Origin: a virus
UHGV virus genome: UHGV-1410056
Strand: one strand, 5' to 3'
Length of the DNA stretch: 40,444 bases
Below, one piece after another: positions 5,540 to 38,213 of this stretch (position 1 is the stretch's first letter; every line of letters begins with the position of its first letter). The position numbers and the translations under genes are program-made. The notes under the pieces are model-generated. The model ran no database searches, was not told where the DNA came from, and saw only the letters and a list, made by a program, of their open reading frames with translations.

Positions 5540-6124
5540 TTATTGTTTGCTTTTTTCGTTCTGGTTGATGACAAATTCAATGTAACTTTCGATCTTTGCT
5601 TTCTCGGTTTCGGGTAACAATGCGTAGCGTGAGCGGTCATAGTTGATAGTCGCAGGGTCGTGCGGGTGAATCAGTAGTTCATATCCGTGACGCCCGAATG
5701 CGGATGCAACATTCTCCAGGGTGGAAATGGAAACGCTGACCTCATTGTTTAACAGGCGGCTGATTGTCACCTGGGCGACGCCGGATGCGCGGTGAAGTTT
5801 TCCCTGTGTTGAAAGGTCGCGGCTTTCGCTCATCCAGCGTTCCAGGTTGTGAGCCGCCAGCTGACCTATATCGCTCGGGCCGACAGGCTGAAAACCCTCC
5901 TGAGAAAGCGAACGATCAATATCAAGCCAGTTACGGGGTTTATTGGCGGCAGCTTCAATTTTTCGTGCAACCTGGTCGCCGATAACCTTCTTGCCAAGAG
6001 CCCAGCGGTTTACCAGATTTGCCTGAGTTCCAAGTTTTTCTGCCATCCGCGTCTGAACACCATTGAATTCACGGTCGATCAAGTCGTTGAGATTTTGCCT
6101 GCGGACGTCCTGGATACTTTTCAT
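5540..6124 (-). CDS. CI-like phage repressor with two HTH (XRE-type) domains and no S24 peptidase domain
   Basis: 194 aa; two HTH-like segments (TRMAEKLGTQANLVNRW... and ASGVAQVTISRLLNNE...); no Ser/Lys autocleavage module; divergent from Cro-like gene; no SD before ATG (possibly leaderless). Confidence 0.7.
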   Translation of the reverse strand: MKSIQDVRRQNLNDLIDREFNGVQTRMAEKLGTQANLVNRWALGKKVIGDQVARKIEAAANKPRNWLDIDRSLSQEGFQPVGPSDIGQLAAHNLERWMSESRDLSTQGKLHRASGVAQVTISRLLNNEVSVSISTLENVASAFGRHGYELLIHPHDPATINYDRSRYALLPETEKAKIESYIEFVINQNEKSKQ

Positions 6125-15117: not shown

Positions 15118-15194
15118 TGGCGTGGCATGCAGGATTCGAACCTGCGACCAACCGCTTAGAAGGCGGTTGCTCTGTCCAACTGAGCTAATGCCAC
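15118..15194 (-). tRNA. tRNA-Arg, anticodon UCU (reads AGA)
   Basis: 77 nt; manual fold gives 7-bp acceptor stem GUGGCAU/AUGCCAC, D-stem GCUC/GAGC, anticodon stem ACCGC/GCGGU with loop CUUCUAA, T-arm GCAGG-UUCGAAU-CCUGC, encoded CCA. Confidence 0.9.
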
Positions 15195-32781: not shown

Positions 32782-33492
32782 TCAGAAGAACCCTGCCTTG
32801 TCGTTGATGTATTCCGCGTGGGTCTGGATATCACGCAGGCATTTGCTCACACCGACGATGTAGCAGAACATGGTGGTCAGCTCCGCCGCCGCGCCCGATA
32901 CGTCGTGCCCGTCGTCCTGTAACTGGTTCAGCAGATTCATCAGCAGTGAGTTCTCCGTCAGGCCGAGAACACCAGACGGCGAATTAATCAGGCTGCGGTA
33001 GCCGGGCTTCAGTGGGGCGCTGTAGGTTTTGTTCTCTATCTTCATCGCCTGCATTACTGCTGACGCCGTGGCGTTGGCTACCTGGTCGGCAACCATCTTT
33101 ATGCGTTCTTCCTGCGGGAGCGAGTTTTTAATGTAGCTTCCGGTGCGGCGGATCTGAGGAAGAACCTCACCCGTAACCCATTTACGAAAGCGGTAGGGGA
33201 TAGTGCCTGGTGTCACTGCGTCGCGGCAGCGGAGGATCAGTGTGTAGAGGCCTGACTCGGAGATGATGTTGATCTCTTTTACTCGGCTGTCAAAAATTGC
33301 ACGATGTTCATGCCCTATGTTGAACATAGACCTTTCATCATCATCCAGTTTTTCAAGTGCTTGGGTGACGTTTTGGATACGCAGCGCACTACAAACGTCT
33401 TGGGCTACAAACCATGGTTGGCCATCGATAATGATGGAACGGATAGGGTTAACAGATTCAAATTTGAAGATGGAAGTTTGAGCATTAGCCAT
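32782..33492 (-). CDS. Antirepressor (Bro-N / AntA-type N-terminal domain plus C-terminal domain)
   Basis: About 236 aa from ATG 33492; N-terminal Bro-N-like region (FKFESVNPIRSIIIDGQPWFVAQDVCSAL); C-terminal 80 aa paralogous to the LexA-box gene at 34641-34898. Confidence 0.7.
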   Translation of the reverse strand: MANAQTSIFKFESVNPIRSIIIDGQPWFVAQDVCSALRIQNVTQALEKLDDDERSMFNIGHEHRAIFDSRVKEINIISESGLYTLILRCRDAVTPGTIPYRFRKWVTGEVLPQIRRTGSYIKNSLPQEERIKMVADQVANATASAVMQAMKIENKTYSAPLKPGYRSLINSPSGVLGLTENSLLMNLLNQLQDDGHDVSGAAAELTTMFCYIVGVSKCLRDIQTHAEYINDKAGFF

Positions 33493-33510
33493 GGTGGTTA
33501 TCTCCACTTA

Positions 33511-33524
33511 GTGATTTTAATCAC
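33511..33524. promoter_or_regulatory. 14-bp palindrome GTGATTTTAATCAC just upstream of the antirepressor start
   Basis: Perfect inverted repeat GTGATT/AATCAC 19 bp upstream of ATG 33492. Confidence 0.35.
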
Positions 33525-33648
33525 CACCGCAACGCCAATTACTGGTGGTGAACTGGACAAGGTTGGCGTACCGGCCTAAGTGGTACCGGCGTCCTTTCGG
33601 ACCCCTGCCCAGCCCACCATAATTCGGATATAGCTGTGCTTAACGCAT

Positions 33649-33782
33649 AAAAAAACCACGTCTGGCGTGGTATGCGCCACTTAGTAACCCGGGACGCCAA
33701 TCCCGGCACTGGATTTTGCCAGTGCCCGATTACTATGGCACAAGAGGAGTGCGATGTAAATTTACCGCAAAGGTAATGATAA
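33649..33782 (-). ncRNA. Candidate small RNA or attenuated leader (about 120 nt) upstream of the antirepressor gene
   Basis: Reverse-strand promoter TTGATT (plus 33800-33805) - 17 bp - TATCAT (plus 33777-33782), overlapped by operator 33762-33776; transcript contains hairpins (GGCACTGG/CCAGTGCC; CCGGGA/TCCCGG) and ends at intrinsic terminator CCACG-N5-CGTGG + T7 (plus 33649-33670); no credible ORF. Confidence 0.4.
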
Positions 33783-33869
33783 ACGCGGAGAAATATCAAA
33801 ATCAACCGTATTTGGTTGGTGGCGTTTAACGCTTGATCACCTGAAAGCAAGATATTACCTTTAAGGTAA
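33762..33869. promoter_or_regulatory. Two perfect TTACC-N5-GGTAA operators (33762-33776, 33855-33869) in the divergent control region between the antirepressor side and the zinc-ribbon gene
   Basis: Second operator sits 20 bp upstream of ATG 33890. Confidence 0.5.
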
Positions 33870-33889: not shown

Positions 33890-34618
33890 ATGGAAGTTTT
33901 CTGGATAGTTGTTGGTGTGGTTGCGGTGATTATTTACGTTATCAACCAGAACAAGACTAAGATCTCTGATCGTACGGTCGTTAATCATAACAAAACGATA
34001 AAGACCGAAGATGGGGAGATAACGATTAATCGTACACAGGTGATAGAACACACCTCTACTCAGTTTCAAAAAACTGGAGGTAATGCGCCTAATATTTCCG
34101 AACCTCCTGCTTATGATAGTGCGGTAATCCAGACATATTGTAAACAGCAGGAGTTAGCAAAAGAGAGGCAACTGATTCAGCCAAAGCCGTTTACAGCTGA
34201 GCTTCCACCTGGAGTATCAATGCGTCCGGCATATCATGGAAGATTCCCTGGTGATGACATATCGTCTCAGTCATCTAAAAAAGCACCTCAGGCAGTATCA
34301 GAGCCAGCAAGAATACCTTCTGTATCGCCGCCAAAAGAAGAATCAGCTAACAGAGTTTCAAGTGGCCGCAAGCAGTGTTTGCGATGCAGAATAAACCTTC
34401 CATATGACAAATTCCGGAAATCGTCAAAAAATCCAGATGGATTGACTAAGTGGTGTGCAAGGTGTCTCGATGGCCCAAAGAATACACGCCATATGAAGTG
34501 GTGCCCAATTTGTAATGTCCGCAGAAAACGGACCAGCTTTTACCCTAATAATCAAAATGCGGACGGCTTAATGGCATGGTGCAAAACGTGCTGGGACGAG
34601 CACAAAGCGAAACGATAG
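33890..34618 (+). CDS. Membrane-anchored protein with C-terminal tandem CxxC zinc-ribbon-like repeats; unknown function
   Basis: 242 aa; N-terminal TM helix (EVFWIVVGVVAVIIYVI); C-terminal repeats CLRCRINLPYDKFRKSSKNPDGLTKWCARC and CPICNVRRKRTSFYPNNQNADGLMAWCKTC. Confidence 0.55.
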   Translation: MEVFWIVVGVVAVIIYVINQNKTKISDRTVVNHNKTIKTEDGEITINRTQVIEHTSTQFQKTGGNAPNISEPPAYDSAVIQTYCKQQELAKERQLIQPKPFTAELPPGVSMRPAYHGRFPGDDISSQSSKKAPQAVSEPARIPSVSPPKEESANRVSSGRKQCLRCRINLPYDKFRKSSKNPDGLTKWCARCLDGPKNTRHMKWCPICNVRRKRTSFYPNNQNADGLMAWCKTCWDEHKAKR

Positions 34619-34640: not shown

Positions 34641-34898
34641 TTACCGGGTTTGTTTTCGTAATTGTTCGGCACAATAGTCGAGATGTGTTTGCAGATCCTG
34701 CATAGACATCTGTGAGCTGGTGACGTAGTTAATCAGTGCAGTCAGTTCGGCAAGTGGGCCATCGACATTAAATCCATCCTTATCGAGATCCCGGAGTAAT
34801 TTCATCAAGTGCGATCCCTCCACCAGTGACCTGACGCCTCCCGGCGTGTGAATCCTTTCGGTAAATCCGTCTTCCAGTGGATAGTGATACTGCTGCAT
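34641..34898 (-). CDS. Small LexA-controlled protein (85 aa) homologous to the antirepressor C-terminal domain; candidate SOS-induced antirepressor
   Basis: Start ATG 34898 (GGAGAAG SD) within track ORF 34641..34916; about 40% identity by eye to the C-terminus of the Bro-N antirepressor (shared GV..L.E.S.LM.LL..L..DG..V.G...ELT ... D.QTH); LexA box immediately upstream. Confidence 0.6.
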   Translation of the reverse strand: MQQYHYPLEDGFTERIHTPGGVRSLVEGSHLMKLLRDLDKDGFNVDGPLAELTALINYVTSSQMSMQDLQTHLDYCAEQLRKQTR

Positions 34899-34919
34899 CT
34901 TATCTTCTCCATGCAATAA

Positions 34920-34974: not shown

Positions 34975-34989
34975 TTACCTGAAAGGTAA
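34975..34989. promoter_or_regulatory. Perfect TTACC-tgaaa-GGTAA operator between the LexA-controlled gene and the tailspike gene
   Basis: Same 15-bp sequence as the site at 15517-15531. Confidence 0.5.
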
Positions 34990-35093: not shown

Positions 35094-38000
35094 ATGACGG
35101 TCTCAACCGAAGTTGACCACAACGAATACACCGGTAACGGCGTTACGACATCGTTTCCGTATACTTTTCGAATTTTCAGAAAATCAGACCTGGTTGTTCA
35201 GGTGTCTGACCTGAACGGAAACGTAACAGAATTGGTTCTGGATACCGGTTATACGGTAACTGGGGCGGGCACTTATAGTGGCGGTTCTGTGGTTCTTCCG
35301 TCTCCGCTTGCTACTGGATGGCGAATTACGATAGATCGTGTGCTTGATGTAGTGCAGGAGACAGACCTTCGCAATCAGGGAAAATTTTTCCCCGAAGTGC
35401 ATGAAGATGCCTTTGACTACCTGACGATGCTGATCCAGCAATGTTTTGGGTGGTTCAGACGTGCATTGATGAAACCATCTTTGCTTGCAAAATATTACGA
35501 TGCAAAGCAAAACAAAATTTCTAACCTTGCAGATCCATCATTTGAGCAGGACGCTGTAAATAATCGCTCAATGCGTAATTATGTCGATGCTGCAATCGCC
35601 GGGGTTGTTGGTGGTTTTGGTTGGTTTATTCAGTATGGTTCTGGGGCTGTGTACCGAACGTTCCAGGATAAAATGCGTGATGCTATTAGCCCCAAAGATT
35701 TTGGAGCTGTTGGTGATGGTATAAATGACGATTCCACTGCAATAAGCGCGTGCCTTGAAGCCTCATCTCCAGGTTATAAAATTGACGGATTAGGGCTTAC
35801 TTTTAAAGTATCAACTCTTCCGGATGTCAGTCGATTTAAAAATGCTCGTTTTTTATTTGAGAGAATACCGGGCCAGCCTCTTTTTTATGCTTCTGAAGAT
35901 TTTATCCAGGGAGAGTTATTTAAAATTACAGATACACCGTGGTACAACGCCTGGACGCAGGATAAAACGTTTGTATATGACAATGTCATCTATGCGCCTT
36001 TTATGGCTGGAGACCGCCATGGTGTAAATAACCTCCATGTTGCATGGGTTCGCTCAGGAGATGACGGGAAGACCTGGACAACGCCGGAATGGCTTACAGA
36101 TTTACATGAAAACTATCCCACAGTTAACTATCACTGCATGAGTATGGGGGTTGTCAGAAATCGCCTTTTTGCTGTAATTGAGACGCGGACCGTGAGCGGA
36201 AATAAACTGCAGGTTGCAGAGTTGTGGGATCGCCCAATGAGTCGCAGCCTTCGCGCTTATGGTGGTATAACGAAAGCAGCAAATCAGCAAGTCGCTTATA
36301 TTCGCATTACTGATCACGGATTATTTGCTGGTGATTTTGTCAACTTCTCAAACTCTGGTGTTACAGGTGTTACCGGGAATATGACGGTGACTACTGTTAT
36401 TGATAAAAATACTTTTACAGTTACGACGCAAAATACCCAGGATGTGGATCAGAATAACGAGGGTAGATACTGGAGTTTTGGTACATCATTTCACTCGTCA
36501 CCATGGAGAAAAACCAGTCTTGGAACTATTCCTTCTTTTGTTGACGGAAGCACTCCTGTTACTGAGATTCACAGTTTTGCGACGATTAGCGATAACAGTT
36601 TTGCTGTTGGCTACCATAATGGTGATATTGGTCCACGCGAGCTTGGGATACTCTATTTCTCTGATGCTTTCGGTTCTCCTGGTAGCTTTGTTCGCAGACG
36701 CATACCTGCAGAATATGAGGCGAATGCATCTGAGCCATGTGTAAAATATTATGATGGCATTCTGTATCTGACGACCAGGGGGACATTAAGTACTCAACCC
36801 GGTAGTTCATTGCACAGAAGCTCTGATTTAGGTACATCATGGAATTCTCTTCGCTTCCCAAATAATGTTCATCACTCAAACCTTCCTTTTGCCAAAGTTG
36901 GCGATGAGCTGATTATTTTTGGCAGTGAGCGCGCATTTGGTGAGTGGGAAGGAGGAGAACCTGATAACCGTTATGCAGGAAATTATCCAAGAACATTTAT
37001 GACCAGAGTTAACGTCAATGAGTGGAGTCTGGATAATGTAGAGTGGGTTAATGTTACTGATCAGATTTATCAGGGCGGAATAGTTAACTCTGCAGTTGGT
37101 GTTGGTTCAGTTTGTATCAAAGACAACTGGCTGTACTACATTTTCGGTGGGGAAGACTTTCTAAACCCATGGAGCATAGGGGATAACAACAGAAAATATC
37201 CTTATGTTCACGATGGTCACCCGGCTGATTTGTATTGTTTCAGGGTGAAAATTAAACAGGAAGAATTTGTTTCAAGGGATTTTGTCTACGGAGCCACTCC
37301 TAACAGAACGCTTCCTACTTTTATGTCGACGTCAGGCGTGAGGACGGTTCCTGTACCCGTTGATTTCGCAGATGATGTTGCCGTCCAGTCACTGACTGTC
37401 CATGCAGGTACATCAGGACAAGTTCGCGCGGAAGTCAAACTTGAGGGTAATTACGCCATTATTGCGAAGAAAGTACCGTCTGATGATGTTACCGCTCAGA
37501 GATTAATCGTTAGCGGCGGTGAAACAACGTCTTCAGCAGATGGTGCAATGATAACGTTGCATGGTTCCGGAAGCAGTACTCCACGTCGCGCGGTATATAA
37601 CGCACTCGAACATCTTTTTGAGAACGGAGATGTTAAACCTTATCTTGATAATGTAAATGCTCTTGGTGGTCCGGGAAACAGGTTCTCGACAGTTTATCTT
37701 GGCTCCAATCCTGTGGTTACCAGTGACGGAACATTAAAGACAGAGCCGGTCTCTCCTGACGAAGCATTGCTGGATGCCTGGGGTGACGTCAGGTATATCG
37801 CTTATAAATGGCTGAACGCTGTCGCTATAAAGGGGGAAGAAGGGGCGAGGATACATCATGGTGTAATCGCGCAGCAACTTCGTGATGTTCTTATTTCTCA
37901 CGGACTCATGGAAGAAGAAAGCACAACATGCCGCTATGCCTTTCTTTGCTATGACGATTATCCCGCAGTATATGATGACGTCATTACTGGCCAAAGGGAA

Positions 38001-38213
38001 ATGCCGCTGACTGATAATGACGGGAGCATCATTGTTGATGAGGATGATAATCCAGTGATGGTAATGGAAGACATCATTGAGCGCGTTGAAATAACGCCAG
38101 CAGGATCTAGATGGGGGGTCAGACCTGATCTCTTATTCTATATCGAGGCAGCATGGCAGCGCAGAGAAATGGATAAGATAAAAGAGCGGATTCAGTCTCT
38201 GGAAGAACGTTAA
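35094..38213 (+). CDS. Tailspike: endo-N-acetylneuraminidase (endosialidase) with C-terminal intramolecular chaperone domain
   Basis: 1039 aa; T7 gp17-like N-terminal head-binding region; two sialidase Asp-boxes (SGDDGKTW, SSDLGTSW); long collinear match to K1F-type endosialidase catalytic region as I recall it; C-terminal about 162 aa resemble the autocleaving chaperone domain with predicted cleavage at Ser877/Asp878 (37722-37727). Confidence 0.8.
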   Translation: MTVSTEVDHNEYTGNGVTTSFPYTFRIFRKSDLVVQVSDLNGNVTELVLDTGYTVTGAGTYSGGSVVLPSPLATGWRITIDRVLDVVQETDLRNQGKFFPEVHEDAFDYLTMLIQQCFGWFRRALMKPSLLAKYYDAKQNKISNLADPSFEQDAVNNRSMRNYVDAAIAGVVGGFGWFIQYGSGAVYRTFQDKMRDAISPKDFGAVGDGINDDSTAISACLEASSPGYKIDGLGLTFKVSTLPDVSRFKNARFLFERIPGQPLFYASEDFIQGELFKITDTPWYNAWTQDKTFVYDNVIYAPFMAGDRHGVNNLHVAWVRSGDDGKTWTTPEWLTDLHENYPTVNYHCMSMGVVRNRLFAVIETRTVSGNKLQVAELWDRPMSRSLRAYGGITKAANQQVAYIRITDHGLFAGDFVNFSNSGVTGVTGNMTVTTVIDKNTFTVTTQNTQDVDQNNEGRYWSFGTSFHSSPWRKTSLGTIPSFVDGSTPVTEIHSFATISDNSFAVGYHNGDIGPRELGILYFSDAFGSPGSFVRRRIPAEYEANASEPCVKYYDGILYLTTRGTLSTQPGSSLHRSSDLGTSWNSLRFPNNVHHSNLPFAKVGDELIIFGSERAFGEWEGGEPDNRYAGNYPRTFMTRVNVNEWSLDNVEWVNVTDQIYQGGIVNSAVGVGSVCIKDNWLYYIFGGEDFLNPWSIGDNNRKYPYVHDGHPADLYCFRVKIKQEEFVSRDFVYGATPNRTLPTFMSTSGVRTVPVPVDFADDVAVQSLTVHAGTSGQVRAEVKLEGNYAIIAKKVPSDDVTAQRLIVSGGETTSSADGAMITLHGSGSSTPRRAVYNALEHLFENGDVKPYLDNVNALGGPGNRFSTVYLGSNPVVTSDGTLKTEPVSPDEALLDAWGDVRYIAYKWLNAVAIKGEEGARIHHGVIAQQLRDVLISHGLMEEESTTCRYAFLCYDDYPAVYDDVITGQREMPLTDNDGSIIVDEDDNPVMVMEDIIERVEITPAGSRWGVRPDLLFYIEAAWQRREMDKIKERIQSLEER

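Follow-up and report, generated by a model that had tools for sequence, protein, structure and literature searches.

Leader and C4 RNAs upstream of ant

The UHGV virus genome UHGV-1410056, a DNA of 40,444 nucleotides (nt) that was analysed as a whole and is referred to below as the window, carries on its minus strand the gene ant, which encodes a BRO-N antirepressor of 236 amino acids (aa) at 32782-33492 (Pfam Bro-N, E = 9.4e-20). Its ATG at 33492 is also the start used by RefSeq in a 99.7% identical prophage, and in the related phage ZX5 an antirepressor is located at the same genome position and its overexpression promotes the lytic cycle (PMC9782041). A previous reading made from the letters alone (the sequence-only reading) had pointed to positions 33649-33805 of the same strand, upstream of ant, as a promoter overlapped by an operator and followed by an RNA of about 120 nt that ends in a terminator. 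This element, and the RNA switch on ant to which it appears to belong, are the subject of the present analysis.

When the whole window was scanned with Rfam at the gathering thresholds, three matches were obtained, namely a tRNA, isrK and C4. The isrK match (RF01394) occupies 33649-33725 on the minus strand as a c4-a1b1-type leader, covers model positions 1-77 of 77 and scores 67.7 bits against a gathering score of 50 (E = 1.6e-12), and by this sequence match the flagged element is an IsrK-family small RNA or leader. The predicted folding energy of the 77-nt RNA is -30 kcal/mol (z = -2.4), and its minimum-free-energy fold contains hairpin 1 (33725-33706, minus strand), hairpin 2 (33705-33690, minus strand), a linker and an intrinsic terminator (33671-33649, minus strand; ACCACG-CCAGA-CGUGGU and then U7) whose hairpin has -7.1 kcal/mol and which was also found by a terminator scan. 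The two hairpins and the clean terminator with seven T that the sequence-only reading had described were both reproduced in this way, and its estimate of about 160 bp between terminator and ant start agrees with the 157 nt measured from the terminator end to the ATG. The covariance analysis across homologues that it had proposed bore out hairpin 1, in which five of the six pairs show compensatory changes across 16 homologues. An outer helix (33642-33678, minus strand), formed by GGCGCAU (33678-33672) and AUGCGUU (33648-33642), is predicted to enclose the terminator hairpin together with the U tract; it is outside the Rfam isrK model and can be formed only in the read-through RNA. The arms of this helix covary at the same position in all homologues (GCGCAU/AUGCGU, GCGACAA/UUGUCGC and GCGGACA/UGUCCG, the last including P1). 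The terminator and the outer helix were missed by RNAalifold on the MAFFT leader alignment, where they are out of register, and per-sequence folds were used.

A C4 antisense RNA (Rfam RF01695) lies about 25 nt downstream of the IsrK element, beyond the coordinates of the sequence-only reading, at 33541-33624 on the minus strand. The match is full length and scores 66 bits against a gathering score of 45 (E = 8.6e-11), and 18 of the 24 consensus pairs show compensatory changes among 18 homologues. In P1, C4 represses at a2/b2 and is cut out by RNase P. The flanks of the C4 in the window are P1-like, with AAUUAU directly followed by GGUGGG on the 5' side and CACC on the 3' side. With its ends set by analogy with those of P1 C4, the mature C4 is predicted to be 33618-33544, and by the same analogy it is probably excised by RNase P.

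Using a repeat finder and a script, we found that C4 is complementary to two pairs of sites on the minus strand, one in the leader and one at the ant translation start. In C4 itself, the b' box CCACUUAG (33583-33576, minus strand) is in the hairpin loop and the a' box ACGCCAA (33569-33563, minus strand) is single-stranded. The leader carries the a1 box UUGGCGU (33694-33700), which is in the loop of hairpin 2 and is complementary to a', and the b1 box CUAAGUGG (33677-33684), which is positioned between hairpin 2 and the terminator and is complementary to b'. At the translation start, the a2 box UUGGCGU (33532-33538) is directly 3' of C4, and the b2 box CUAAGUGG (33504-33511) overlaps the ant Shine-Dalgarno sequence GGAG (33505-33502) by 2 nt. 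The pairing of b' with b1 and with b2 extends over 8 of 8 bp each, and that of a' with a1 and with a2 over 7 of 7 bp each, with box-level duplex energies of -9.9 kcal/mol (b) and -9.3 kcal/mol (a). The whole-molecule RNAduplex values for C4 (-52 kcal/mol against the leader and -37 kcal/mol against the translation start) ignore intramolecular structure and were not used. The b1 box is followed by CG, not by the AG needed to complete a Shine-Dalgarno sequence, and copies the target only. In the predicted fold of the read-through RNA (z = -5.3), C4 takes the family structure, and b2 and the Shine-Dalgarno sequence are in the loop of a GGUGGU/ACCACC hairpin. The P1-type target, in which the ribosome-binding site of icd is coupled to ant, was not found here, as there is no open reading frame (ORF) between C4 and ant; this icd-less layout with b2 at the Shine-Dalgarno sequence of ant itself is common to many homologues.

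Based on these observations, we conclude that C4, and not an RNA from the opposite strand, is the actual antisense repressor. The sequence-only reading had proposed an analogy with sar of P22 immI, where a cis-antisense RNA lies across the ant ribosome-binding site, and RNA control of an antirepressor is indeed a theme that the two systems share, but only at that level. In the window the conserved RNA genes share the strand of ant and precede it, and the whole-window Rfam scan gave no sar match. In addition, the sole plus-strand promoter-like site between 32500 and 35200 (34404-34432) is remote from the start of ant, the window lacks arc and mnt, and the operator at the locus is a dispersed palindrome. 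A sar-like RNA therefore has next to no chance of being the regulator here. The view that the isrK leader and C4 together form a phage P1-type RNA switch on ant translation, which is a known kind of regulator, is in contrast well supported.

Homologous loci and the coding alternative

The module is consistently found beside ant. Among relatives of Ant in IMG/VR, it is located upstream of ant in 78 of 79 loci, and the exception ends at a contig end. We found 256 phage GenBank records with the module, including those of Stx, Salmonella, Yersinia, Klebsiella, Hafnia and Enterobacter phages. When 12 phage loci were fetched, the isrK and C4 pair was confirmed by Rfam at fixed spacing in all but one; in the remaining locus, Salmonella phage SW-37, there is a C4 match and no isrK match, and hairpin 1 differs. 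Where the fetched loci are annotated, the module precedes an antirepressor or BRO-N gene, and in two records a coding sequence (CDS) is laid over the RNA region. The module is also contained in 457 of 5426 complete E. coli genomes, and despite this number it is unannotated in RefSeq and in phage records. A scan of viral contigs with the pattern GCAAAATC-N6-CCGGG..., which is one base too long for this lineage, gave 10 distant loci, and the same GCAAAATC pattern in genome contigs gave mostly chance matches in unrelated taxa. On two of the IMG/VR contigs (L006 and L010), which carry distant C4 loci, several type II hammerhead ribozyme matches of 52-69 bits were observed no more than 1-2 kb from C4.

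We then compared the boxes of 18 loci, comprising the window, Gifsy-1, P1, 10 phage records and five IMG/VR contigs. These loci differ in their boxes, with about 15 distinct versions of b and 9 of a, and yet every C4 fits the a1/a2 and b1/b2 of its own locus. The match of a' to a1 and a2 usually extends over 7 of 7 bp, and that of b' to b1 and b2 over 6-13 bp with an occasional G-U pair; the end of b2 falls at or within the Shine-Dalgarno sequence or the start codon throughout the 18 loci. When we took the smaller of the leader match and the translation start match for each combination (17 loci, without Gifsy-1), the cognate mean was 8.1 nt versus 5.3 nt for non-cognate combinations. Non-cognate matches of at least 8 nt occur mostly between loci with the same b box; there are two exceptions, the C4 of Tyrion and that of Kp4865-1 against the targets of Salmonella 118970_sal3, whose b boxes are not shared.

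The loop of hairpin 1 (33712-33719, minus strand), GCAAAAUC, is near-invariant across the family and reads GCAAAUUC in P1; Hfq binding or a tertiary contact are possibilities for its role. In the search for a partner of this loop, an AAAAUC copy was noted beside b2 in the window, but it is absent from the homologues. In three loci (L192 and two identical IMG/VR loci), the loop and inner stem of hairpin 1 are reverse-complemented, with CTGGATTTTGCCAG in place of CTGGCAAAATCCAG. In this natural hairpin-flip variant the stem is kept and the conserved loop is complemented.

The region could be thought to be protein-coding, or to be a degraded gene, since a 103-aa frame (33539-33850) is open in the window, and related records annotate an 'Ash family protein' or a protein 'similar to hypothetical protein' over the region. 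Furthermore, Pfam Phage_ASH (PF10554) matches a CDS of Hafnia phage yong2 (L217:988-1671) exactly over the isrK and C4 region. However, neither Pfam nor NCBIfam gave a match for the 103-aa ORF, and the frame of this ORF differs from that of the 'Ash' similarity. When the latter frame was examined by tblastn, the window (33470-33740, minus strand) was 50% identical over 70 residues but contained two stops, one in b1 and the other in b'. No frame is open across isrK and C4 in the 14 loci checked, in agreement with the sequence-only reading, which had seen no credible ORF. The variation moreover tracks RNA pairing, both in the compensatory changes of the stems and in the co-variation of the a and b boxes; with the two stops in the 'Ash' frame, this speaks against the degraded coding sequence that the same reading had named as a refutation of its proposal. 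Taken together, the region is RNA-coding, and a protein or degraded gene as the explanation of the locus is very improbable. The 'Ash family protein' annotations here are probably wrong, and the family similarity may come from translating a conserved RNA locus; orf45 of Gifsy-1 is in the same frame as the 'Ash' similarity.

Promoters, operators and gene context

The leader is preceded by two promoter candidates on the minus strand. The distal sigma-70-like promoter (33776-33805), which was found by a promoter scan, consists of TTGATT (33805-33800), an 18-nt spacer and TATCAT (33781-33776). It is the promoter of the sequence-only reading, whose hexamers are correct and whose 17-nt spacer is one nucleotide too short. 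Promoter-likeness is by itself not significant, as 4 sites were found versus 3.8 expected. This promoter is upstream of a recombination breakpoint at about 33782, and related phages show two alternative contexts upstream of the breakpoint, TTGATT-18-TATCAT or TTGCAA-17-TATATT, and in both of them the -10 of a promoter-like pair directly adjoins the operator. Judged from its sequence and position, it is probably a distal, operator-controlled promoter.

The proximal promoter (33732-33760, minus strand; TTTACA-17-TGcCATAGT with an extended -10), which the sequence-only reading had missed, lies between the distal promoter and the hairpins, and its +1 is predicted at 33725. It is invariant in 63 unique related sequences, and 6 nt separate its end from the start of hairpin 1 at 33725. 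Every homologue likewise has a sigma-70-like promoter with its -10 ending 6-7 nt before hairpin 1, including the annotated P1c4/P51b of P1 and PisrK of Gifsy-1. Since the position of this promoter is conserved in all homologues, the RNA is expected to start at about 33725 and to be about 77 nt long. The proposal of a regulatory RNA was correct, but its length of about 120 nt is probably too great.

The operator palindrome TTACC-TTTGC-GGTAA (33762-33776) is perfect in its 5+5 arms. As the sequence-only reading had described, it overlaps the distal promoter; it spans about -7 to +8 of this promoter and covers the last base of the -10 and the predicted start. With respect to the proximal promoter, the operator is at -37 to -51 with its centre at about -44, where it could repress, spare or even activate. 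A second palindrome, TTACC-TTTAA-GGTAA on the plus strand (33855-33869), is found in the same intergenic region, upstream of an ORF at 33890-34618. In the window as a whole there are 14 sites of the type TTACC-N5-GGTAA (15 bp), 11 of them perfect, versus 0.59 expected, and none of 100 shuffles reaches 14; the sites are at 151, 5405, 5468, 6180, 6228, 8467, 8529, 12352, 12370, 15517, 32695, 33762, 33855 and 34975. With N6 spacing the pattern has no matches in the window, and N5 is the correct spacing. Each of the 14 palindromes is either between genes or at the start of one. A gene for a 194-aa double-HTH protein (5540-6124, minus strand) has four of them on its flanks, and therefore the palindrome looks like the operator of the main phage repressor, which we infer to be the binding protein; further copies are found ahead of the terminase region and of the tail spike. 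The set looks like the dispersed operators of one master repressor, as for C1 of P1.

The window itself looks like an epsilon15-like (Uetakevirus-type) phage or prophage. Its tail spike (35094-38213, plus strand) is an endosialidase with End_beta_propel, End_tail_spike and Peptidase_S74 chaperone domains, which implies a K1-capsule-specific epsilon15-like phage, and in this podophage the isrK/C4 module is flanked by tail-spike and internal-protein genes. Between ant and the tail spike, the divergent ORF at 33890-34618 (plus strand) encodes 242 aa with an N-terminal hydrophobic segment and a Cys-rich C-terminus; it starts 20 nt past the second operator and gave a weak Stc1-domain match (E = 3e-4) that is below the Pfam cutoff. 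A 91-aa ORF (34641-34916, minus strand), which is a paralogue of the Ant C-terminal domain (41% identity over 74 aa, E = 2e-14), stands between this ORF and the tail spike as a separate copy of that domain, and the operator at 34975 adjoins it. The tRNA gene of the Rfam scan is at 15121-15194 on the minus strand (73.3 bits).

Proposed control of ant and comparison with known systems

We consider it highly probable that a P1 immI-type (c4) RNA switch, with repression by C4 and mimic sites in the leader, controls ant, and the feature is in all likelihood real and functional. This view is founded on the family membership of both RNAs, the box complementarities, their co-variation and the synteny with ant. 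In the proposed mechanism, transcription would start from the proximal promoter at about 33725 and, without the phage repressor, probably also from the distal promoter that the operator overlaps. Many transcripts would stop at the leaky terminator at 33649 to give a short IsrK-like RNA with a1 and b1, and read-through would give C4 and the ant mRNA, with C4 probably being released by RNase P as in P1. The b' and a' boxes of C4 would then pair with b2 and a2 at the ant translation start, and translation would be blocked because b2 overlaps the Shine-Dalgarno sequence, so that the antirepressor would be off in the lysogen. Being perfect copies of the a2 and b2 cores without the Shine-Dalgarno sequence, a1 and b1 would be target mimics that compete for C4, in cis in the read-through RNA or in trans in the short RNA. 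Stress conditions raise IsrK. A rise of the leader output, via the repressor-sensitive distal promoter or by stress, would accordingly relieve the repression by C4 and allow ant to be translated.

The homologous locus of Gifsy-1 has been studied experimentally (Hershko-Shalev et al. 2016, PMC4825925). In its antQ-anrP interval we found isrK at 79.3 bits, c4-a1b1 at 48.1 bits and C4 at 69 bits; the C4 match is in orf45/STnc1160 (locus 34131-34316, minus strand), and an antirepressor-like gene follows. The two loci have in common the promoter, the 77-nt RNA with a leaky terminator, the C4 element, a2, b2 by the Shine-Dalgarno sequence and the antirepressor-like gene, and they match the same isrK Rfam family over its full length. 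They also share the a box (UUGGCGU/ACGCCAA), whereas the b box differs, the window has neither antQ nor isrJ of the Gifsy-1 neighbourhood, and the operator of the window is absent from Gifsy-1. IsrK of Gifsy-1 has a leaky terminator and exists as a short terminated form and as a read-through mRNA, to which only part of the transcripts proceed, and an RNA of about 80 nt, STnc1160, is processed from the read-through transcript (PMC4825925). The sequence-only reading had left the choice between a regulatory small RNA and a terminator-containing leader linked to ant, and by the precedent of this homologue both are right (PMC4825925). The pairs G28-C162 and G31-C159 have been proven by compensatory mutations, and the short IsrK supplied in trans increased antirepressor translation more than 100-fold in a manner that needs G28 and G31 (PMC4825925). 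When we mapped these positions on the fetched Gifsy-1 sequence, on which the AUGs of orf45 given in that paper, nt 107 and 119, also fall as expected, the two pairs proved to be a1:a' pairs of the P1 scheme. Therefore, IsrK-type RNAs are suggested to be mimics that act on a C4 repressor. The Gifsy-1 authors instead explained activation by translation of orf45 coupled to that of the antirepressor and invoked no C4-type repressor; they likened IsrK to CI/seqA of P4, and P1 and c4 are never mentioned (PMC4825925). In the window, the orf45 frame, whose AUG is in the 5' stem strand of C4, stops after 14 codons, and thus the coupling mechanism of Gifsy-1 cannot operate here.

We further propose, more tentatively, that the 77-nt RNA may be a dedicated target mimic ('anti-antisense') for the C4 of the same transcript. 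IsrK of Gifsy-1, the a1/b1 leader of P1 and the element of the window would then be one device, in which the leaky terminator sets the ratio of mimic, repressor and target, and the distal promoter flips this ratio on induction. If this is true, the co-varying a and b 'barcodes' would let co-resident prophages run independent antirepressor switches, and 'orf45' and the Pfam 'Ash protein family' would be largely translations of an RNA locus.

An inert leader was weighed against this, in which hairpins and terminator only cut read-through, a phage antiterminator is needed for ant and the short RNA does nothing. An intrinsic terminator does lie between promoter and ant, and the partial read-through in Gifsy-1 would fit such a device (PMC4825925). 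On the other hand, the co-variation of a1 and b1 with C4 across about 15 specificities is unexpected of an inert leader, and the short IsrK is active in trans in Gifsy-1 (PMC4825925). Nothing points to a protein antiterminator, on which the sequence-only reading had thought that ant might depend, and neither an antiterminator nor a nut/qut-like element was recognised in its vicinity. For these reasons we find a plain attenuated leader improbable.

The more serious rival is attenuation of the P4 kind, in which C4 would pair with the nascent a1 and b1 and raise termination at 33671-33649, limiting its own synthesis and ant transcription, alongside translational control or instead of it. The geometry is suitable in that b1 ends 5 nt before the terminator stem, the last 2 nt of b1 are part of the outer helix, and a terminator-like hairpin is present between b1 and C4 in every homologue, P1 included. 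The Gifsy-1 authors have themselves raised such a role as a possibility for STnc1160 by analogy with P4 CI and seqA/seqC, but constitutive STnc1160 increased, and did not reduce, the toxicity mediated by IsrK (PMC4825925). No conserved antiterminator alternative was found: the window allows UGGCG/CGCCA pairing between the 3' end of b1 and the terminator loop, but the homologues have only 4-bp GC-rich matches. The overlap of b2 with the Shine-Dalgarno sequence, seen in nearly all loci, argues for control at the level of translation. We thus regard P4-like attenuation as unlikely, and repression of ant translation by C4 remains the preferred explanation.

Here, we need to consider several points that weigh against the C4 switch with its mimic sites. 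First, we infer for this phage the transcription start and the other transcript ends, the termination efficiency, the processing of C4, the control of the distal promoter by the repressor, and the action of the leader as a mimic. Second, the full-length c4-a1b1 match of the window (RF03163; 33738-33686, 44.1 bits, E = 7.9e-10), obtained in a more permissive Rfam scan, is under the gathering score of 46.7, whereas P1, Gifsy-1, CP-1639 and Stx phi296 do exceed it. Third, no partner complementary to the hairpin-1 loop GCAAAAUC was found in C4 or in the ant leader, and the GenBank annotation of P1 gives the role of a1/b1 as putative only. Finally, the C4-mimic view of the Gifsy-1 data is a reinterpretation, and the published mechanism cannot be carried over directly. 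Mutations of a1 in cis increased basal translation in Gifsy-1 instead of decreasing it (PMC4825925), showing that the a1:a' pairing in cis belongs to an inactive fold; a pure titration model would not predict this.

The proposed switch offers a concrete and testable circuit by which an epsilon15-like prophage would hold its antirepressor off. It also links the literatures on P1 c4 and Salmonella IsrK, which are treated separately in searchable papers. IsrK and c4 appear as two distinct systems in a review of 2025, and both Rfam matches were noted beside a BRO-N gene in a study of an APSE phage. Its practical value is mainly in annotation, where such loci should be labelled as isrK/C4 RNA genes and not as 'Ash family' or hypothetical proteins, and the a and b box sequences could serve to predict heteroimmunity groups.

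Among the known systems, immI of P22 also places an antirepressor of a temperate podophage under negative control at the RNA level. Its sar RNA, encoded in cis, comes from the strand opposite to ant and overlaps the ribosome-binding site of that gene, and Arc and Mnt are protein repressors; none of these parts was found in the window. The CI RNA of satellite phage P4 is, like the C4 predicted for the window, a small RNA processed from a leader transcript, with complementary sites upstream and downstream (seqA/seqC). Its outcome is premature transcription termination of the replication operon, and not occlusion of an antirepressor ribosome-binding site, and we liken the two by description only.

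The immI region of P1 and P7 is colinear with the window from the operator through the antirepressor. The order in the P1 GenBank record is Oc4/Op51 (the C1 operator), P2c4 (P51a), P1c4 (P51b), a1, b1, C4, a2, b2, icd and ant1/2, and P2c4/P51a, which is operator-controlled and upstream of P51b, is the positional counterpart of the distal promoter of the window. Several details differ. The host element is a plasmid prophage in P1 and an epsilon15-like podophage here, the P1 operator is asymmetric and over the -35 whereas that of the window is a symmetric TTACC-N5-GGTAA over the distal -10/+1, and the boxes have other sequences and hence another specificity. The ribosome-binding site covered by b2 in P1 is that of icd, to which ant is translationally coupled, whereas in the window b2 overlaps the Shine-Dalgarno sequence that belongs to ant. 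Of the two leader terminators, that of the window is the stronger, with U7 versus UAUUUUUGU in P1, and therefore a discrete short RNA is expected. Other features are shared. Both have the repressor operators dispersed, a1 in the loop of hairpin 2 and a terminator-like hairpin, within the outer helix, between b1 and C4. Both also have b' in a C4 loop, a' single-stranded and b2 at a ribosome-binding site, and C4 in both is bordered by (A)AUUAU directly followed by GGUGGG at its 5' end and by CACC at its 3' end.

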